Below, one piece after another: positions 8,547 to 41,815 of a stretch of DNA of 44,274 nucleotides. How positions within the stretch are numbered: the first letter of the stretch is position 1; each line of letters opens with the position of its first letter. The position numbers and the translations under genes are program-made. Where the stretch lies: NCBI RefSeq assembly GCF_004010195.1, contig NC_057753.1, positions 4,367,779 to 4,412,052 on the forward strand, written 5' to 3'. This DNA is from Chiloscyllium plagiosum. Its lineage: Eukaryota. The notes beneath the pieces were generated by a model that saw only the letters and a program-made list of their open reading frames with translations, was not told where the DNA came from and searched no databases.

Positions 8547-8616
8547 CTGGGAATGCGATAACTGCAAGAGTAGTGTAGTAAATGGCATAGGCAAGGCCAC
8601 TTGGTGGAAGGTGCAT
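8547..8616 (-). CDS. Exon 1 of GPR139-like GPCR gene A (exon 2 not found in window)
   Basis: Encodes MHLPPSGLAYAIYYTTLAVIAFP plus 1 nt, then donor CAG|GTAAAA; 70 nt, same length and phase as exon 1 of gene C (MHGQVTGPVYAIYYPVLAAFGVP). Confidence 0.8.
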
Positions 8617-8685: not shown

Positions 8686-8725
8686 ATTATACCTCATGTT
8701 CAACTCCCCCAGGACACAATTAGGC
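8686..8725 (-). promoter_or_regulatory. Putative proximal promoter of gene A: homeodomain site, O/E(EBF)-like site, TATA
   Basis: Minus strand reads GCCTAATTG-TG-TCCTGGGGGA-GTTG-AACATGAGG-TATAAT; 20/25 identical to the block upstream of gene C. Confidence 0.6.
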
Positions 8726-9057
8726 AGCACCACAATTAATGTGCTTAACTGCCTTTGAACAAACAGATTACGCTGCATTAACTTTGATATTAATTAGAAC
8801 TTTATTTCCAATACTGCAGACTAGACACAATTAAATTGGACAGAATGAAAAAAAGGACAGTTTCAATACGAAATGCACTTCAGGTTACGCTGGAACTCAC
8901 TGGTGATTTCTGAAATTATTCACAACGTATAGCAATATAAATGCAAAGCAATTATGCCTCACATTTTTGACACTTTTCACTCGATTTGGAAAATGAGTAA
9001 TCCTTTTTGAGTTGGGAAACGTCTGCATTTATATGATCTTTTGTGATTATTTTTTTC

Positions 9058-19519: not shown

Positions 19520-21620
19520 TTCATCGAGCTCCACAGAGCGGAAACAGACCCTTTGGTCCAACTCATCCAAGTCAATCAGTTGTCATAGAGACCTCCAGCA
19601 CGGAGACCTACCTTTTTTCACAAACTGCTCCATGCCTACCAAAACGTTCAACCAAGATAATCACATTTCCTGAACTTAGCCCATATCCTTCTAAATCCTT
19701 CGTAACTACCTATTTGTCCAAATCCCTTTTAAATGTTGTTAATGTACGCGCCTCAACCACTTCTTGCGGCAGTTCATTCCATATGCGCACCACCCTCTGT
19801 GTAAGTAAAGTGGCCCCAGTATTATTTCCCCAGTAAACGGAAAGTGACGCCCTATAATCCTCATTTCTCCAACCCTGGGAAAAGAAGATTGAGTGCATTC
19901 ACCCTATCCATGCCTCCCACAATCTTATATACCTCTATAAGATTTCTCCCTCAGTCTCCGACGCTCTATAGAAAATGTTCCTCGCCTTCCCAACCACTTC
20001 CTACAACTTAGACCCTGGAGACCTGATAACACCCTTGTAAATTTCTTTTGCACTCTTTTCAATTTAGGCCAGTGTGCCAAAAGCGGACTTCATTGCTCTG
20101 TCTACCTTTGATTGCGCTTTCAGAGAACTGTGAACCTGAACTCCAAGATCCCTCTGAACCACTGCACTCTTTAAGTCCTTAACATTCACAATGAAACTCC
20201 AACTTTGAGTTGACTTTCCAAAACGCAAGACCTCACACTTATCTATATTAAACTCCATTGGTCATTCGTCACTCTACTCCCCCAGCTCATCAAAGTCCAG
20301 CTGCATTTTCTGATAACTTTCCTCACTCCCCACAATAGTGTCATCAGTAAACTTACTAATTATGCCTTGTACATTCTCATCGAAATCGTTAATATAGAAA
20401 ACAGACAGTAATGAGTCCAACGCCGAACCGTGAGGCACCGCACTAGTCACAGTCCTCCAGTCCAACAAGTATCCTTCTCCTATTGCCCTCATCTTCCTAC
20501 CATCAAGCCAATTGTGTATCCAATTTGCCAACTCGCCTATTCCATGCAATTTAACCTTCCAGAGCAGCCTACCACGTGGAACCATTTCAATGGCCTTACT
20601 GAAACCCATGTAGACTATATTTACCAACCTGCCCTCGTCAACCTTCCTGGTCATATCATCAAAGCACTCGAACAAATTTGTGGAGCGGGATCTCCCACTC
20701 ACATAGCTATGCTGACTACTCCTAATCAAACCCAGTCTTTCCAAGTGCATGCATGTCTTATCTCTCAAAATCTTCTCAAGTGACTTACCCATATTAGACT
20801 TATTAGTATCCAGTTCCTAGGCTTTCCTTTGCAGCCCTTCTTCAATACTGTCCCAACATTAACCAACCTCCATTCTCCTGGGACCTCACCGGTGGCTAAT
20901 GATAATGCAAGAATATTGCCCAGGGCCACGCAATTTAGCCGCTTGCAGTGTTCTTGGATAATCAGGTCAGGACCAGGAGATTTATCCACCTTCATTATTC
21001 AAATTCATTCAATACCGCCTCTACTATGATATTGACTCTCCAACAAGCCACCATTAACGTACCCAAGTTCCCAAATTATCGTGTCTTTTCTCGCGGTAAA
21101 CACAGACGAGAAATATTCATTGAGAACCTTACCCATCTCCTGCGGTTCTACTTCGGTCTTTGTGAGGTCCTATTCTGTCTCTAGTTATTCGTTTTCCTTT
21201 AATATACTTAAAGTGCCATTTTGGATTCACCCCAATCTTCTCGGCCAAGGCTACTTCGTGCCATCTTTTCGCCCTCCTAATTTCCTTCTTCTGTAAACTC
21301 CTATATTCCTTCCAGGGATTGCCTTGATCCTAGCTATTTGTATATGAGCCAGGCCTCCTTCCTTTTTCTGGTCAAAGTTTCAATATCTCTTGTCGTCCAG
21401 AGTTTGTGGCTCTTACAAAACGTGCCGTTTACCCTCATACAAACATATAATCCTTGAACATCAGTGACATCACTTTTACAGGACTCCCACTTGCCAGAGG
21501 TCACATTGCCTGCTTACAAACTGCTCCCATCAACTCCTGCAAGCTCATGTCTACTTGCATCAAACTTCACCTTGCCCTAATTTAGAACTTGAACCTGTGG
21601 ACCAGTGTTGTCACTCTCCA
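19520..21620 (-). mobile_element. CR1 LINE ORF2 plus 3' tail (about 2.1 kb)
   Basis: ORFs 20765..20995 (KVDKSPGPD), 20274..20792 (RT, ISKFTDDT), 20064..20258 (MEFNIDKCEVL). Confidence 0.9.
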
Positions 21621-21959: not shown

Positions 21960-22430
21960 TTCTAAAGGAGTAATTTATATGGGTTGTAAGTGGTTTATAA
22001 ATGCATTGGTGCCAAGGACTCAGCAGCTGGAATATATTTGTACTTTCTTGGAGAAGAAACTTTGGATCACTAAGGCCTCTGATCTGGTAATTATTTGTAA
22101 ATCGCTCATATAAAAACTGTATTACATATGCCACCACAATAAGATGAAACTGCCTGAAACAGCAAATAGTAAAATAACAGATTTTGTTTTGGCGCTCCAT
22201 TTTTGGGTCCATCTGATTCTTTTTACTGCTGTTGGGTCAAAGCCTCTACTGCGATCTACTGGCTGCTATAATAGCAGTAGAATGAGAATAGTAGTAGAAT
22301 GAGAAAGAACGGTGTAAATGGTGTCAAAATACGGTCAAACCCGTCAAATGTTCGCCATATTAAAAAAAATGTAATGGATTTTTTTTCTCAGGGCACAAAT
22401 CCATGGGACGCCGTTTGCCAGGTAAATTGA
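21960..22430 (-). pseudogene. 3' half of exon 2 of GPR139-like pseudogene B
   Basis: Frameshifted segments IYLANGVPWIC, WRTFDGFDRILTPFTPFFLIL, QMDPKME, KSVILLFAVSGSFILLW, YQIRGLSDPKFLLQES match gene C exon 2 in order. Confidence 0.9.
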
Positions 22431-23925: not shown

Positions 23926-23995
23926 CTGGAACCGCAATCACTGTAAGGACGGTGTAGTATACAAGACAGACTGGTCCTCGAGGTGGAGTGTGTAT
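23926..23995 (-). pseudogene. Exon 1 of GPR139-like pseudogene B (start codon ATG>ATA)
   Basis: Reads (ATA)HTPPRGPVCLVYYTVLTVIAVP plus G|GTAATG; 70 nt like exon 1 of A and C. Confidence 0.85.
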
Positions 23996-24164
23996 TTTCT
24001 ACTAGAAACAGTGGTGGGTGATTAGCATCACACTTGTACTTTGTCTCCTTGATGATATATCATTTGTTATCTCTCAGGTTAAACCACCAAAGACACAAGT
24101 AATGTGTCTCCTTGTCTTTCAACAGCAGGTGGGTTTACATTAACTTCATGTTAATTATTAATTA

Positions 24165-27261: not shown

Positions 27262-28190
27262 TTGTATGACTCTATCTAATCGCCTCTTAGCCTTCTTCGT
27301 GCCAATGAGAACAGGTTCAAGCCTCTCAGCCTTTCATCACAAGACCTTCCCTCCAGAACAGGCAACATCCTGGTAAATCTCCTCTGCACCTTTTCCAATG
27401 CTTCCACATCCTTCCCGAAATATGGGGACCAGAACTGTACACAATATTCCAAGTGTGGATGCACCAGTGTTTTGTATAGTTGCAGCATCTTATTGTGGCT
27501 CCGGAACTCAATCCCACTATGAATGAAACCTAACACACTGCATTCCTTCTTAACAGCACTATCCACCTGGGTGGCAACTTTCAGGGATCTATGTACATGA
27601 ACTCCAAGATCCCTCTGCACATCCACACTACCAAGAATCTTTCCATCGACCCAGTACTCTGCCTTCCAGCTATTCTTGCCAAAGTGCATCACCTCATATT
27701 TAGTTGCATTGAACTCCATTTTCCACCTCTCAGCCCAATTCTGCAGTTTATCCAAGTCCCGCTGCAACCTGTAACATTCATCCACACTGTCCACTACTCC
27801 ACCGACCTTAGTGTCGTTTGCAAATTTACTAATCCATTCACCTATGCCTGCGTCTAAGTCATCTATAAAAATGACAAACAGCAGTGGTCCCAAAACAGAC
27901 CATTGTGGCACACCACTAGTAACCGGACTCTAGGCTGAATATTTTCCATCAACCACCACTCNNNNNNNNNNNNNNNNNNNNNNNNNNNNNNNNNNNNNNN
28001 NNNNNNNNNNNNNNNNNTTTCCTACAACAGAAGTAAGGCTCACTGGTCTATAATTTCCTGGGTCGTCTCTACTGCCCTTCTTGAACAAGGGCACAACATT
28101 TGCAATCGTCCAGTCCTCTGGTACCAAACCTGTAGACAATGACGATTCAAATATGAAAGCCAAAGGCTCTGCTATCTCCTCCCTAGCCCC
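27262..28190 (-). mobile_element. Relatively young CR1 LINE ORF2 fragment spanning an assembly gap
   Basis: ORF 27276..27911 (PQWSVLGPLLFVIFIDDLD, SKFANDTK, HLEYCVQFWSP) and VPEDWTIANVVPLFKKGSRDDPGNYRPVSLTSVVG. Confidence 0.93.
27962..28017. other. Assembly gap (56 N)
   Basis: Run of N. Confidence 0.99.
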
Positions 28191-28199
28191 AGAACCGTT

Positions 28200-29760
28200 C
28201 CATCCCTCGTTCGACTCATTAAATATTTGTGTCAAAAGTTCTCCATTGCAAATTTCAAGAAATCCACTCAATCCCAGCTCTAAATAATATCCCAGTTAAT
28301 GTTGGGAAAGTTGAAATCACTTACAGTAATGATAATTTTGTTATTATTTTTACCTCAGTGAATTGTACACAAATATGCCCGTCAATTCTCCACCGAATCT
28401 CTGGAGTCCGCAATATACACCTAGCAATGTGATTGCCCCCTTTGCTTTTATTCCTGAGCTTATCCACAAAGCTTCATTCATACCCCTCCAAGTGCCATCT
28501 CCCCTTATAGTAGTGACTCGCTCTTTAACTAATAGTGCAAAGTCTCCTCTTCTTTCACCCTTCCTTTATCTCGCTGAATATATATATCCCAGAATGTTGA
28601 ATTGCCAATACTGCGCTTGTCTCAACCACATCCATATGATGGCTACTTTATCGCATTTACATAGATCAATAATCCCCCTTAATTCATGAGTTTTACATCA
28701 GTACTCCCAGTATTAAAGCAAAGACCATTCAGCTTTGCCTTAATCCCTTGGAAACTATTAAAGCTGCACTCCCTCTGATTTGACTGTATTATTGTACGAT
28801 TCAATCCCCTTATTCTGCCAAATGTCTATGTCCCTTCACTCTGCTGAATTAGTTTAATGTTTTTGGTCATTTAAACTAGTAAGCCATCCCGCAAGAATGT
28901 TAGTACTGCTTTGGTTCGGATGTGGATCATCGCACTTGTATAGATTCACCTTCCTCAGAAATGGTCCCAGTGATCAAGGAATCTAAATGCCTGCACAACA
29001 CCTCCTGCAACAATTGTGAGGCCACACCTTCATCTGCTCGATATGCTATTCGTGTGCTCACCAACACGTGCTACTGGGAGAAATCCGGAGATTACAAATT
29101 GCGAGGTCTTGCTTTTTAGTCTACTGTCTAGCTCTCCAAATTCTTGACTTATACGCCATCCCTCAGTCTGCCTTTGTGAATCGTACGAGCTTTTAGCATG
29201 TCCTCTGCCTTACTGCCCTCTCCTTTGAGGATGCCCTGCAGCTCTCCCCGGACATCCTGGACCCTAACAGCAGGGAGGCAACACGTCATGCTGGAGTCAC
29301 ACTAGCGGCCACAGTAGAATCCCCTATTAATATCGCCCTTCCTCTCTTGCTGCCCTCCTGTACACACAGGCAGCTTGTGATACCAAAAGCTTGTCTGTGT
29401 CTGCAGTCCCTAAAGGAACCAATGGCCTCATCAGCCTCCAAATTGACACATCGATTTGCGAACAGAACTGGAGTGGATCCTGAAATACCTGCCTGTTTTT
29501 CCTGCTCTGGCTTGTGGTCACTCGTTATCTTCCTTCTTCAGGTTTCTTCATCTGAAGATGACCACCTTTCTAAAAATGTGATCAACAATGCTCTCAGACT
29601 CGCGGAAGCTCCGCAGAGTCCTCAACCGCTGATCCAGCTCTGAAATCCGAGCGTCAAGGTGCTGCAGCTGAACCCCTTCCTGTACATATACTGCTCCCGG
29701 GCATTGGAAATATATATGACCACACTCATAGAGCAAGAGGAGCAAATCACACTTCGGTCT
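28200..29760 (-). mobile_element. CR1 5' region: ORF1 (leucine zipper, esterase-like) and endonuclease remnants
   Basis: LQHLDARISELDQRLRTLRSFRESESIVDHIFRKVV, CCLPAVRVQDV; APE remnants GVYCGL and VIIT.SDFNFPNINW. Confidence 0.75.
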
Positions 29761-32788: not shown

Positions 32789-32828
32789 GCCTAATTGAAT
32801 CAGTGGGGAGTTGCACGCAGTATAAGAG
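32789..32828 (+). promoter_or_regulatory. Putative proximal promoter of gene C: homeodomain site, O/E-like site, TATA
   Basis: GCCTAATTG-AA-TCAGTGGGGA-GTTG-CACGCAG-TATAAGAG; TATA lies 84 nt before the ATG; conserved with gene A. Confidence 0.6.
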
Positions 32829-32904: not shown

Positions 32905-32974
32905 ATGCATGGACAAGTAACTGGTCCAGTATATGCCATTTACTATCCTGTTCTTGCTGCCTTTGGTGTACCAG
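32905..32974 (+). CDS. Exon 1 of intact GPR139-like GPCR gene C
   Basis: MHGQVTGPVYAIYYPVLAAFGVP plus G, consensus donor CAG|GTGAGT; the phase-1 junction joins in frame to exon 2 giving GVP-ANLM. Confidence 0.88.
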
Positions 32975-33129
32975 GTGAGTCACTAGAACCAATAATCTAT
33001 TTTACATATCCTTTTGATCAATTTCTTTGCTATCATTTTATCCGAAGCTATATCAATGCAGTCTAATTCTCTCCTCATTCTCTAGCAAAGCGACCAATAT
33101 AGTGCAGACAGGCACAGCAAGCAACTCAG

Positions 33130-34550: not shown

Positions 34551-34669
34551 AGATCATATAGTATAACGATGGCATTGCTAAAGAAAAACACATTTTTAAT
34601 CAAGAATCACATCTGTGTTTGGAAATCCAAGGTGTGCGTTGGGACTTTAGATCAACTCACAGTATATTA

Positions 34670-34855
34670 GAAAATAGAACATAGAACATTACAACGCAGT
34701 ACAGGCCTTTCGGTCCTCAATGTTGCAGTGACCTGCAAAACAAAATGAAACGTGCATCTGACCAACACTATTCCATTATCGAGTGACCATTTAAATGCCT
34801 TTATATTTAGCGAGTCTATGACTGTTGCAGCAGGGTGTTCCACGCCGTTACGACT
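34670..34855 (-). mobile_element. CR1 3' tail
   Basis: ATAGAACATAGAACATTACAACGCAGTACAGGCCTTTCGG. Confidence 0.65.
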
Positions 34856-35910: not shown

Positions 35911-36845
35911 CTAACTTAATGACTATTGTGATCCTGTCTCTTGGAAGATGTGGTCTCTCAAGATGTATCACCCATTATCTGGTATGGATGGCTGTGACTG
36001 ACTTTCTGGTTATTATCACTGGTGTAATATTAAACCGAATCAGTGTAATTTATTTCCCAGTTCGTTTCCTATCTATGACGCCAGTCTGTAGCCTCAAAAT
36101 TTATCTAACCTATGCAGCCAGAGACAGCTCAGTATGGTTAACAGTTGCTTTCTCTTTTGATCGATTTGTCGCCATATGTTGCCAGAAGTTTAAAAGAAAG
36201 TACTGCACTGAAAACATTGCAGCTGCTGTAATAGGAACGGTCTGTACTCTGAGCTGTTTTAAAAACATCCCGTGGTACTTTGTATATGAGCCTTTGTATA
36301 TGATTAAGGGTGTCCCATGGTACTGCAGCATTAAATTAGCATTTTATTCTGAACTCACTTGGGCAGTGTTTGACTGGATCGACCGCATGTTAAATCCTTT
36401 TTTGCCATTCCTCCTGATGCTAGCTTTCAACGCACTAACAGTTAGAAATATTCTTGCAACATTTAACATCCGCAGGAGGCTCCGTAGCCAACGTGATGGA
36501 GAGAAACAGAGCGACCCAGAGATGCACAATCGGAGAAAGTCCATTGTTCTGCTCTTTACCATATCGAGCAGCTTCCTCTTATTGTGGATGACTTATGTTG
36601 TAAACTTTCTGTATGTCCGAATCACAAAGGATTATCAGATCTCAGGTTTCAATGATCCAAAATTTATTCTCCAAGAAAGCGGAAATATGCTTCAGCTTTT
36701 GAGCTGCTGCACCAACACATGCATTTACGCAGCGACCCAGACTAAATTCAGAGAGCAATTCTTGAAGGTGTTCAAATATCCTGTATATATGTTAATTAAA
36801 GCAGCAATTCACAGAAAACAGGGAAATGAGCTTCCACAGAGTTGA
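35911..36845 (+). CDS. Exon 2 of intact GPR139-like class A GPCR gene C (spliced protein 334 aa)
   Basis: Acceptor TTTTTTCATTCATCTGCAG|; open frame with seven hydrophobic helices in the spliced protein, MAVTD (TM2), SVWLTVAFSFDRFVAIC (TM3), LLFTISSSFLLLW (TM6), NMLQLL..NTCIY (TM7). These resemble GPR139 motifs, but the gene is too divergent to call the ortholog. Confidence 0.93.
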
Positions 36846-37296: not shown

Positions 37297-37758
37297 AGGT
37301 GCCTCAGTGGATAGCAATGATGCCCCACAGCTTCAGTGGCCCAGGTTCGATTCCAGCCTCAGGTAACTATCTATGTGGAGGTTGTGCATTCCCGCTGTGT
37401 CTGCGTGGGTTTCCTCTGGGTGCTTCGGTTTCCTCCCACAATCCAAAGATGTGCAAGTTAGGTAAATTGGCCATGCTAAATTACCAATAGTCTTCAGGGA
37501 TGTGTAGGTTAGGTGCATTAGTCCGGGGTGAATACAGGGGAATGGGTCTGCGTGGGTTACTGTTCAGAGGGAAACGTGAGGACTGCAGATGCTGGTGATC
37601 AGAGCTTAAACATGTGCAGCAGGTCAGGCAGCATCAAAGGAACAGGAGAATCGACGTTTTGGGCATAAGCCCTTCTTCAGGAATGACTCACTGTTCAGAG
37701 GGTCGATGTGAACTTATTGTACAGAAGGGCCTGTTTCCACATTGAAGGGATACTATGA
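37297..37758 (+). mobile_element. HE1-type SINE with a nested insertion
   Basis: B-box GGTTCGATTCC, conserved core, tail GGGCCTGTTTCCAC. Confidence 0.88.
37572..37689 (-). mobile_element. 118-bp Penelope-derived element with 13-bp target site duplication
   Basis: ACTGTTCAGAGGG at 37559-37571 and 37690-37702; insert carries CTGAAGA-A-GGGC-TTAT-GCCC-AAAACGTC. Confidence 0.85.
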
Positions 37759-38261
37759 GTCTCAAAGATTTATCACAGAGCAACAGGCGACTAAGAGCTT
37801 CATAATTTGACAGGGATCAAATAGTCATCAAGCCTCAACAACTGTCACAAGCTTTGTTTCAAAGTTTTGCAATCTGTGCGTTTCAGAACAGCTCAGGTAT
37901 CTTTAATTATTATTAGGTTTCTGTCTCTGCGAGCCTTTTAGGCAGTACTGTCGAGATGCTCATCTGTTTCTGCTTGTAAAATTCCAACATGAAAATCCTT
38001 TCTGCAGCTTCTGCCTCTTCTTTCAATCTCTGCCTCTGGTTTGTTATCATTCTTAAATGGACGTCTTAATTATCATGAGGTATGTTTTTAAAGTATATTC
38101 GCAAGTGTTACCTCAGCCCAATCGTAATATGGGTCGGCTGTGCCTGTGCAAAATAGGTAGCATATAATTAGACAACCATTTACCTCACGCAAGGATTTCC
38201 TTTGAATGACTTCAAAGGAGACCAAGCTGTGTGGCTGCATAATGAGCCAGTTAGTTTCGTA

Positions 38262-41200
38262 GTCACAGAGTCAAAGAGTCCACCAGCACAGAGACAGGCC
38301 CTTTGGATCAAACTGGTACATGCCAACCAATATGCCCATCCATGCTAACCTCATTTACCCGCACTTGGCCCATATCCTTCTAAACCTTTCCTATCCATGT
38401 ATTTGTGCAAAAGACTTATAAATGTTGTTAATGCACCAACATCAACCACTTCAACTGGCAGCTCAGTCCATATGAGTATCACCCTCTGTGTAATATAAAT
38501 ATGTTGCGGCTGAGGTTTACTTTAATTATTTCCCCTTAAACCTTAAACTGATGTTCTCTAGTCCACAATTCCCCAACCCTGAAAAACAAAACACAGATTG
38601 CATTCACCATATCCATGCTTCTCATGACCTCAGACACTTCTATAAGATTCCCTGTCAGCCACCTACGCTCTGAAGAAAATGTCCGAGATTATCCAACCTT
38701 TTCCTTTAACTCAGACCCTGGAGTCCTGACAACATCTTTGCAAATTTCTTCTGCACGCTTTCCAATTTAATAACATCCTTCGTTAAACGAGTTGGCCAAA
38801 ACTGGACACAATTCTCGAAGTGTCAGCTCACCATCCTCCTGTACAACTGCAACATAACTTCACAACGTTTATACACAATACCCTGCCTGACGAAGGCCAG
38901 TGTGCCAAAAACCTTCTTCACTGGCCTATCTATCTGTGACTCAACTTTCAGAGGACCGTGCACCTGAACCTCAAGATCCATCTGTTCCGTTACACACCTT
39001 AAGGCGCTTCCACTCACCACGAATTTCCTACCTTGACTTGACTTGCCAAAATGCAAGACAACGTACTTATCTATATTTAATTCCATTTGCCATTTCTCGG
39101 ACCACTTCTCCAACTGATCAAGGTCTTGCTGCAATTTTTGATAACGTCACTCACAGTCCACGATGCTGCCTATTTTACTGTCATCTGCAATCTTAAAGTG
39201 TACCTTGTACATTCTCATTCAATGCATTGATATAGATAACAAACAGTAATTTGCCCAGCACCGACCCGTGAGGCATTCCGCTTGTCAGAGGCCTCCAGTC
39301 TGACAAGCATTCTTACACTATTATCCTCTGCTTCCCATTATGAAGCCAGTTTTGTATCCAATTTGCCAGCTCCCCCTGGATTCCATGCGATCTAGCCTTC
39401 CAGAGAACACTACTGTGTGGCTCCTTATCAAAGGCTTTGCGGAAATCCGTATGAACCACGTCTACAACAACGTCATTGTCAACCTTCTAGTCACTTCATC
39501 AAAGAACTGTAACAAATTTGTGAGGCATGATCTCCTACACGCATGAAGCCATGCTGACTATTCCTAATCAAACCCTGTCTTTTCAAATGAATGCAAATCT
39601 TATCTCTCAGAATACTTTCAAGTATCTTACCTACTGCAGATGTTCGGCTTTCTGGTTTGCAACCCTTGCTGAGTAGTGGCACAACATTCCCTACCCTTCA
39701 GTATTTCTGGTACTCACGATGATGCAAAAATATCGACCAGGCCCCACAAATTCTTCTCTAGCCTATATCTGGTCAGGACCAGGGGTTTTATGCAACTTCA
39801 TACCTTGTAATCCATCCAACATCTCCTCTACCCATGGTATAACCAATCAGGTCTCCCACATATTGCCAAGTCTTCATATCTTTGTCCACGATAAACACAG
39901 AGGAGAAATATTCATTGAAGACCTCGCTGGTCTCCTGAAATTATATGCATGTATGTGCAGTGTGACCCTATGGGTTCTACTTCTCTTTCTCGTTATGCCT
40001 TTTCCATTAATACACTCAAAGAACCTCTTTGCATTCATCCTAATCCTCTCAACCAAGGCTATCTCATGCCTCCTTTTCTCTCCTGTTTAATTCACCAGTA
40101 AATCACTGTATTCCATTTCCAGAAAAAATAACAGAGAAAATTACAGCACAGGAACAGGCCCTTCAGCCCTCCATGCCTGCATCAATCCTGATCCTCAATC
40201 TAAACCTATCGCCTGTTTTCTAATGGTCTGTATCCCTTTGGTTCTGGCCGATTCATGTATCTGTCCAGATACATCTTAAAATACGGTATTGTTCCCGCCC
40301 TTACCACCTCCGCTGGCAATGTGTTCCAGGCACCCTCCACCCTCTGCATAAAGGACTTTCTACACATATCTCCTCGAAACGTTTCCTCGCTCACGTGACC
40401 CCTAGTACGTCAGTCCTCCATTCTGGGAGAAAAAGCTTCTTACTATTTACCCTGTCCATACCTTTCATGATTTTGAAGACCTCAATCATGCCCCCCACAA
40501 CCTCCGTCTTTCTAATAAAAATAATCCTTATCTACTCAACCTCTCTTCATAACTGGCGCCTTCCATACCAGCCGGCATCATGATGAACCTCCTCTACACA
40601 CTCTCCAAAGCATCCACATCCTTTTTGTAATATGGCGACCAAAACTGTAAACAGTATTTCAAATGTGGTCGAACCAAAGTCTAAGACAACTGTATACGTC
40701 CAGAAATTCCTTTGATCTCAGTTGTCTACTTCTTTTCTCTGGTCAATGCGTTAATATCGCTTATTGTCCCGCGATCCCTATTCATGTCAACCTTACATTT
40801 ATCTTCACAGGAACATGCAGACCTTGAACTCTAGCTATCTAACTTTAAACATCCCCCCACCCCCCCCCCACCCCCATTTGCCAGAGGTCCTCTTGCCTGC
40901 TAACAAACCACTCCAATCAACCCCTCCAATCTCCTGTTTAATTCCATCAAGGTTTTGCCGTTCCCCAATTTAAATGTGAACCTGTGGACCAGTTCAGTCC
41001 CTCTCCCATAAATATTTTAAAATTAATAGATCTATGACCACTGGCAACAGAGTGCTCCCCACTGTCGCCTCAGTCACCTGTCCTGCCCGATTTCGAAATA
41101 GTAGCTCGACTTTTGCCTCCTCCCGAGTAGGACCCTCTATAAACTCTTGAGGAAACTTTCCTGAACGCACTTAAGAGATTCCACCCCATCTAAGCCTGGA

Positions 41201-41815
41201 ACACTCTGGGAATCCCATTCCATTATCGGAAAATCAAAGTCCCCTATTACGATTACTCTATTACTCCTGCAATTATACCCAATCTCCCTACATTTATGTT
41301 GTTCTAATTCCCGTTGCTTCTTTGGGGGCTCATAGTACAACCCCAATAACGTCACCATCCCCTTTTTATTTCTTAGCTCCACCCACAAAGCCTCACTGGA
41401 TAGTTCTTCAGTTGTTTCTTCTCTGATTACTGCTGTTGATACTCGCCTACATCAAAATGCAACTCTCCACCCCTTCTTTCTACCACCAATGCCTCGTCTA
41501 AAGCACGTTTACCCGGCAAATGAAGTTGCCAGTTCTGTCCCTCAGTTAGCCATGTTTCCTTAATGGCTATAATATCCCAGTTTCACGTATTTGCCCATGC
41601 CCTGGGTTCATCAGACTTACCTGTCAGTCAATTTGCATTGAAATAGATGCAATTTAATCCAGCAGGCATTCCTTGTTCCTTGTCGGGTTCCAGCCTGACC
41701 TGTGTCTTCCCTTTTCTATTTCTGATTACTATGTCTGCTTCCAGCCTCGCACTTGCCTCCCTGCTTTTGAGGATCCCACAATCCTGGCAATGTAGTTTAA
41801 ACCCTCCCTTGTAGC
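38262..41815 (-). mobile_element. Long decayed CR1 LINE (endonuclease to 3' tail)
   Basis: WVELRNKKGMVTLLGLYY...VIVIGDFDFP (41137..41388), QGLIRNSQHGF, QQDLDQLEKWSEKWQME (38823..39134). Confidence 0.88.
40130..40695 (-). mobile_element. CR1 3' fragment nested in the long CR1
   Basis: New tail ACAGCACAGGAACAGGCCCTTCAGCCC and FMQRVEGAWNTLPAEVV. Confidence 0.75.

Follow-up and report, generated by a model that had tools for sequence, protein, structure and literature searches.

A TATA-anchored homeodomain and O/E-type promoter module in a large GPR139-like receptor family of sharks and rays

The Greek Island enhancers of mouse odorant receptor (OR) genes carry adjacent Lhx2 and Ebf sites separated by a 1-bp spacer (PMC5608512, PMC11643329, PMC7804114). 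OR enhancers are enriched for this composite, whereas OR promoters are depleted of it (PMC5608512). A preliminary description of the locus studied here had taken neighboring homeodomain and O/E sites as a mark of mammalian OR promoters and enhancers alike, which holds for the enhancers and fails for the mouse promoters. Mammalian OR and V1R promoters do carry O/E and homeodomain sites near the start, along with a TATA box in a subset (PMC3247239, PMC3247230, PMC12547500), and the olfactory O/E consensus has been given as TCCCyngrga (PMC3247239). The known olfactory receptor family of sharks is V2R/OlfC, with 34 genes in catshark (Syed et al. 2023, PMC10116579).

We analyzed 44,274 nt of the genome of Chiloscyllium plagiosum (GCF_004010195.1, NC_057753.1:4,367,779-4,412,052, forward strand), and this whole stretch is called the window. 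Positions given without a contig are those of the window.

Genes A, B and C and their receptor family

The window carries two genes, A and C, of a GPR139-like receptor family, and a third, dead copy of that family, gene B. Their features are as follows.

32792..32797, + strand: homeodomain-type site TAATTG of gene C, from the sequence
32800..32809, + strand: putative O/E (EBF)-type dyad TCAGTGGGGA of gene C, degenerate with 2 mismatches, from the sequence
32821..32826, + strand: TATA box of gene C, 29 nt downstream of the composite start, which is the modal spacing of the family
32905..32974, + strand: coding exon 1 of gene C, comprising 23 codons and 1 further base, with a phase-1 GT donor at 32975
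35911..36845, + strand: exon 2 of gene C
8758..8765, - strand: TGTTTGTT upstream of gene A, a second family motif, which we take to be forkhead-like
8717..8722, - strand: homeodomain-type site TAATTG of gene A
8705..8714, - strand: putative O/E (EBF)-type dyad TCCTGGGGGA of gene A, with 1 mismatch to TCCCNNGGGA
8686..8691, - strand: TATA box of gene A, 31 nt downstream of the composite start
8547..8616, - strand: coding exon 1 of gene A
24082..24101, - strand: decayed composite of gene B, matrix score 12.9, overlooked in the preliminary description
23926..23995, - strand: exon 1 of gene B, a pseudogene whose start codon reads ATA
21964..22272, - strand: remnant of exon 2 of gene B, found by tblastn

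When spliced (32905-32974 joined to 35911-36845), gene C encodes an intact, GPR139-like rhodopsin-class GPCR of 334 amino acids, and the 23 residues of its first exon open, without a single change, public proteins from three other sharks (P0001-P0003). Its best match among solved structures is human GPR139 (PDB 7vug, E 4.9e-07). The presumed exon 2 of gene A is the nearest one on the same strand and lies outside the window (L014, G000:C44:4364848-4365744). Elsewhere in the window, decayed fragments of LINE reverse transcriptase or endonuclease can be recognized by eye on the minus strand (20274-20816, 27276-28295, 38823-39146 and 41137-41451), and high-copy short repeats occur around 34600-34800 and 37400-37800.

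The A and C proteins are 58.5% identical. In a tree of 46 rows, whose outgroup sits on a long branch, they fall into separate clades with support of 100/98 and 100/99. Because each clade contains both shark and ray proteins, the duplication that separated A from C is older than the shark-ray split.

Both genes belong to a family of two-exon, GPR139-like GPCRs with about 2,000 copies in the genome, a count that takes in pseudogenes and possibly redundant small contigs. Genome-wide pattern searches return 2,082 matches for exon 1 with its donor and 2,033 for exon 2, with 0 for both controls. No stop lies inside the match for 102 of the best 125 exon-2 matches, and the frame is unbroken at 11 of 30 sampled exon-2 search loci, with the remainder broken or running into gaps. 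At E <= 1e-20 there are 1,976 public relatives, and the named rows among the top 120 all come from sharks and rays; RefSeq models of the family in these animals carry the name 'probable G-protein coupled receptor 139'. Among six paralogs, dN/dS is 0.91 in the extracellular segments versus 0.33 elsewhere, the latter value being inflated because one of the six sequences (L219) is frameshifted near its end. Large, clustered, rich in dead copies and variable on its extracellular surface, the family looks, as judged from these sequence features, like a chemoreceptor repertoire.

Assignment of the family to the OR, TAAR, V1R/ORA or V2R/OlfC classes by sequence is excluded, since its proteins match only the Pfam domain 7tm_1 and have GPR139-like best matches. 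Nor are its members GPR139 orthologs. Gene C is 27% identical to the true GPR139 of this shark, which is itself a separate single locus (G000:C21). A phase-1 intron in TM1 is common to the two, but true GPR139 is a single conserved copy that lacks the promoter composite described below, whereas the family forms a separate and hugely expanded clade.

Several features of the family are recorded here as side observations. In its largest subfamily, termed the long-N-terminus clade (L050-L078 and L155-L173, on contigs C4-C8), exon 1 holds a variable number of 9-residue (27-nt) repeats, and therefore the length of the N terminus differs between paralogs. These repeats are rich in N-glycosylation-type motifs, and many copies are broken there. 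Contigs C8 and C44-C49 are densely filled by the family. On C44, as in the initial part of C8, one copy is often met every 20-50 kb, so that the family may account for a large share of entire chromosomes. At locus L286 (G000:C8:76.81 Mb), the intron is unusually short, with exon-2-like coding sequence following within ~700 nt of the promoter, and the donor of exon 1 is broken.

A composite promoter module with fixed spacing

The preliminary description rested on a 25-nt element shared by genes A and C, and its measurements are reproduced by our analysis. The copies at 32789-32813 (+) and 8725-8701 (-) are identical at 20 of 25 positions without gaps, begin 116 nt before the ATG at 32905 (C) and 109 nt before the ATG at 8616 (A), and are followed by TATAA after 7 nt (C) and 9 nt (A). 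Their flanks are unalike, as evident by the fact that adjacent 20-nt blocks match at only 1-9 of 20 positions, and the -400..-140 flanks of the two genes reach a local score of 28, which is below the 99.9% level of 32 for shuffled sequences. Gene C was correctly named the weaker copy. Its matrix score of 7.6 exceeds the 95th percentile of controls and stays below the 99th (9.7), versus 15.8 for gene A.

The pairwise match is modest, given that 20 of 25 identities are reached anywhere in 300 x 300 nt in 7 of 1,000 dinucleotide shuffles (p ~0.007). As a family marker, the exact A/C pattern is rejected, with 13 matches genome-wide versus 16 for the reversed control. Seven of the 13 precede a first exon of the family (the two seeds and five others, one of which is truncated by N), and therefore a family-wide test was conducted. 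It is through family-level tests, and not through the A/C pair, that the motif is seen to be beyond chance.

For these tests, first exons were identified from their coding sequence or from where they lie ahead of exon 2, without reference to the motif. Of 89 short-type exon-1 loci, six that had been selected by motif (including A and C) and one containing N were removed, and the remaining 82 were reduced to 53 by dropping loci with alignable -400..-140 flanks. De novo discovery by EM on the 53 promoters yields the composite TAATTATCTCCCTGGAGCCT in 44 of them. The family consensus, TAATTA-NN-TCYCTGGAG, consists of a homeodomain site, 2 bases and an O/E (EBF)-type dyad. Thus, the proposed layout of homeodomain site, O/E site and TATA box is found across paralogs, although the consensus originally drawn from genes A and C proves atypical.

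With the cut-off placed at the 99th percentile of 457 control windows, leave-one-out analysis recovers the composite in 39 of the 53 promoters. A further 29 promoters are relatives of the training set, and 27 of them likewise score above the cut-off. The composite is missed in 14 of the 53 independent promoters, some of which retain the O/E half only. A test defined from the literature (TAATKR, a spacer and TCCCNNGGGA with <=3 mismatches) finds the 2-bp spacer in 25/53 promoters in the sense orientation, in 1/53 in antisense and in 4 of 1,000 control windows. When spacers are surveyed, 2 bp occurs in 24/53 promoters and 1 bp in 1/53, and seven matches at 0 bp resemble a shifted register of the same sites. 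Conservation above the flanks, as had been proposed, is evident among old paralogs, with 0.99 bit per column in the motif versus 0.11 in upstream sequence that is unalignable.

The composite is located 70-115 nt before the ATG, and its start lies 29 nt upstream of the TATA box in 26 of 44 promoters and 26-31 nt upstream of it in 39 of 44. A genome-wide pattern that joins the composite to TATA gives 63 matches versus 4 for the control, and 28 of 30 matches inspected precede a first exon of the family (26 by score, and two by eye with broken donors). Many of these loci come from a subfamily that is barely represented in the training set. A wider consensus lacking TATA was set aside; it gives 59 versus 14 matches, but only 10 of the first 30 are family promoters. 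Among loci from a generic exon-1 search, which belong mostly to the long-N-terminus clade, 12 of 47 pass the composite cut-off. That clade carries a degenerate composite in the same place, before an AT-rich box, and a second O/E-like site upstream.

Other genes of the same genome served as controls. In 1.4 kb upstream of the true GPR139 ortholog, the composite remains below the cut-off (best score 8.9), and none of three other class C genes used as non-olfactory controls, admittedly few, exceeds it; we take these three to be CaSR, mGluR and GPRC6A/T1R-like genes. The motif is a real, selected promoter module of the shark and ray GPR139-like family. It is retained across paralogs older than the shark-ray split and is nearly confined to the family.

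Variation on this arrangement was also noted. Among eight loci (L089, L090, L103, L109, L128, L132, L133 and L141), some keep the O/E half and the TATA box and have lost the homeodomain half, and others have a word of the TGATGTCA or TGATGTAA type instead. Promoters of either kind could represent expression subclasses.

The mouse Greek Island composite (Monahan et al. 2017, PMC5608512) and the shark module have much in common. In each, TAATTR directly precedes an EBF-type dyad with a single orientation, the spacing is stereotyped, and the associated genes form clusters of a very large GPCR family. However, the spacer is 1 bp in mouse and 2 bp in shark, and the mouse motif resides in intergenic enhancers whereas the shark motif resides in promoters at a fixed distance from TATA. 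Binding by Lhx2 and Ebf has been demonstrated for the mouse composite and would be predicted for the shark module. A published loose fuzznuc pattern for the mouse composite matches 14/53 family promoters versus 76 of 1,000 controls with its own spacing not favored, and is too loose to discriminate between spacings. Mammalian OR and V1R promoters resemble those of the shark family in their sites near the start, but the two sites of mouse OR promoters are mostly not juxtaposed (PMC3247239, PMC3247230, PMC12547500), whereas those of the shark module are locked together and to TATA, and the shark genes are neither ORs nor V1Rs.

Candidate factors and cell types

Individual site types were counted in the 53 promoters. 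TCCCyngrga within 1 mismatch occurs in 26 promoters versus 2.1 in shuffles, and TAATTR in 40 versus 19.1, whereas TAATGR is not enriched (24 of 53 versus 19.1). A CRE-like word occurs in 12/53 promoters, and its enrichment, like that of the forkhead-like and E-box words considered below, is weaker than for O/E and TAATTR. The terms forkhead-like, E-box and CRE-like are our presumptive labels for enriched words.

A useful comparison is provided by the clustered class C receptors on contig C13, which we infer to be V2R/OlfC genes from their domain content and clustering. A V2R exon-1 search of this genome gives 47 matches, some of which are non-V2R class C genes. From 30 V2R-search loci, six lacking an assigned ATG and one CaSR-like gene were removed. 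The 23 remaining V2R-like promoters carry O/E in 12 (1.5 in shuffles), TAATTR in 17 (7.8) and TATA in 15 (5.0), counts that are not independent because the genes are tandem paralogs. The 2-bp composite is present in 2/23, and 6/23 pass the composite cut-off. As class C receptors whose promoters have no fixed composite spacing, the V2R/OlfC genes differ from the GPR139-like family. Given that V2Rs are demonstrated olfactory receptors of catshark (PMC10116579), the V2R-like and GPR139-like families would share a vocabulary of olfactory sites, although not its exact spacing.

Two arrangements among the V2R-like genes deserve separate mention. At L181 (G000:C13:35.81 Mb), presumably the conserved core V2R-like gene, a composite with 2-bp spacing and a score of 16.0 lies ~670 nt before the ATG, with a near-perfect O/E site closer in, and the upstream composite is possibly an enhancer-type copy. 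At L189, L196, L200 and L203 (G000:C13:65.5-65.7 Mb), which form one subgroup, a homeodomain-like site and, after it, a pyrimidine-purine dyad lie ~200 nt ahead of the ATG, roughly in the register of the composite.

From its close resemblance to the control code of mammalian smell receptors, it seems fairly likely that the module drives the family in olfactory sensory neurons, and that the family therefore comprises smell receptors of sharks that have been overlooked. Four other explanations of the motif were weighed against this olfactory reading.

The module could instead be a genuine homeodomain and EBF promoter that is active outside the nose, in other sensory cells or neurons such as chemosensory cells of skin or gill, ampullae of Lorenzini, the lateral line, taste buds or the brain. 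We regard this as unlikely, though deserving of serious attention. EBF and homeodomain factors also cooperate in other neurons, and the V2R-like promoters do without the fixed spacing. POU factors are required in taste and tuft-type cells, and expression there is disfavored because the octamer is not enriched in the family promoters (4/53 versus 3.1 in shuffles). EBF and homeodomain proteins are, moreover, generally known to act widely in neurogenesis (see also PMC3113313), and GPR139, the parent gene, encodes a receptor of the brain (PMC7318219). However, a family with ~2,000 copies, birth-and-death turnover and variable extracellular loops is easier to reconcile with an external sensor than with a receptor of the brain, and the combination of O/E, homeodomain and TATA sites is the signature described for OR promoters and recurs in the shark V2R-like promoters.

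It is improbable that the receptors instead form a repertoire of immune sensors, switched on in B cells or other leukocytes by EBF1 together with forkhead and E-box factors. The B-cell triad is EBF1, FOXO1 and E2A, and both the forkhead-like word TGTTTGTT (12/53 promoters versus 1.4 in shuffles) and the E-box CAGCTG (12/53 versus 2.7) are enriched. Relaxed or diversifying evolution of extracellular segments would also suit immune receptors. Yet no partner of the EBF dyad is better conserved than the TAATTR homeodomain site, whose spacing is fixed, and neither the octamer, as counted above, nor Ets (3/53 versus 5.8) is enriched.

Equally doubtful is a functional module whose G/C-rich half is bound by proteins other than EBF, such as the CNTCTGG-binding proteins or an AP-2 factor. 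Many family sites read TCTCTGGAG and thereby contain CNTCTGG, a word described from V1R and OR promoters of mouse and compared with the site of the RP58 repressor (PMC3247230), and dyad position 8 is A in ~70% of sites. However, the conserved columns of this half form a symmetric dyad, TCYC-NN-GRG, as expected of an EBF dimer, and A is permitted at position 8 in the published consensus (PMC3247239). Even a module of this kind would still point to nasal neurons.

Neutral shared descent through recent duplication or gene conversion is extremely improbable and largely refuted. In its favor, recent paralogs are numerous and have entire promoters in common (above all in the long-N-terminus clade), and the A/C match alone reaches only p ~0.007. 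Against it, the motif persists amid unalignable flanks, at a fixed distance from TATA, and A and C, at 58.5% protein identity, diverged before the shark-ray split.

Returning to the olfactory reading, an Lhx2/Emx2-type homeodomain protein and an EBF dimer would bind side by side, ~60 nt before a start site whose position is judged from the TATA box, and would help to recruit TBP. The bound pair would license transcription of the family in olfactory sensory neurons, where each neuron may express one or a few members. The receptors might then detect amino acids or peptides through Gq/Go-PLC-TRPC2 signaling in microvillous neurons. For human GPR139, L-Trp, L-Phe and peptides are proposed agonists and coupling is mainly to Gq/11 (PMC7318219), properties that would be in keeping with the microvillous, TRPC2-positive neurons found in the shark nose; in catshark, all olfactory neurons are described as TRPC2/Go-positive (PMC10116579).

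Expression data bear on this reading to a limited extent. The 50 most specific genes of a catshark brain-plus-olfactory library included no GPCR (PMC11979771), which counts against the olfactory reading, although a signal spread thinly across numerous genes might escape such a ranking. Two single-cell RNA runs from unspecified tissue provide no evidence either way: exon 1 of gene C is without reads, exon 2 has at most a trace in one bin, and mapped reads are almost all repeats, with 0 mapped in one of the runs. Two Logan-derived proteins (P0071 and P0103) were rejected as transcript evidence, as both are unspliced exon-2 frames. The olfactory marker protein family (PF06554) has 0 matches in the whole genome, but control genomes are equally silent, so this result does not speak for its absence.

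Possible implications for the shark nose

In the openly accessible literature searched, which includes shark genome papers, we found no description of this family or of its promoter. The code itself is known from mammals; its promoter-fixed form with a 2-bp spacer, and its presence on a shark family, are new as far as we could find. We lean slightly toward the broader proposal that sharks and rays smell largely via a fifth vertebrate olfactory receptor family, represented in this shark by ~2,000 genes and pseudogenes, which derives from the GPR139 neuropeptide-receptor lineage and in which each gene has a Greek-Island-like Lhx2/EBF composite in its promoter.

If true, this proposal would place a very large, undescribed receptor family in the shark nose and would overturn the view that this organ relies on a few dozen V2Rs. 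It would also mean that a neuropeptide-receptor lineage was recruited independently to smell, would trace the composite code back to the base of jawed vertebrates, and would reveal use of the Lhx2/EBF composite in a promoter with a different spacer. The pairing of a ~2,000-copy GPCR family with an olfactory-type promoter makes a large question about shark smell directly testable. Should the family turn out to be expressed elsewhere than in the nose, the module would still be the first clue we found as to which tissue uses one of the largest gene families of sharks.
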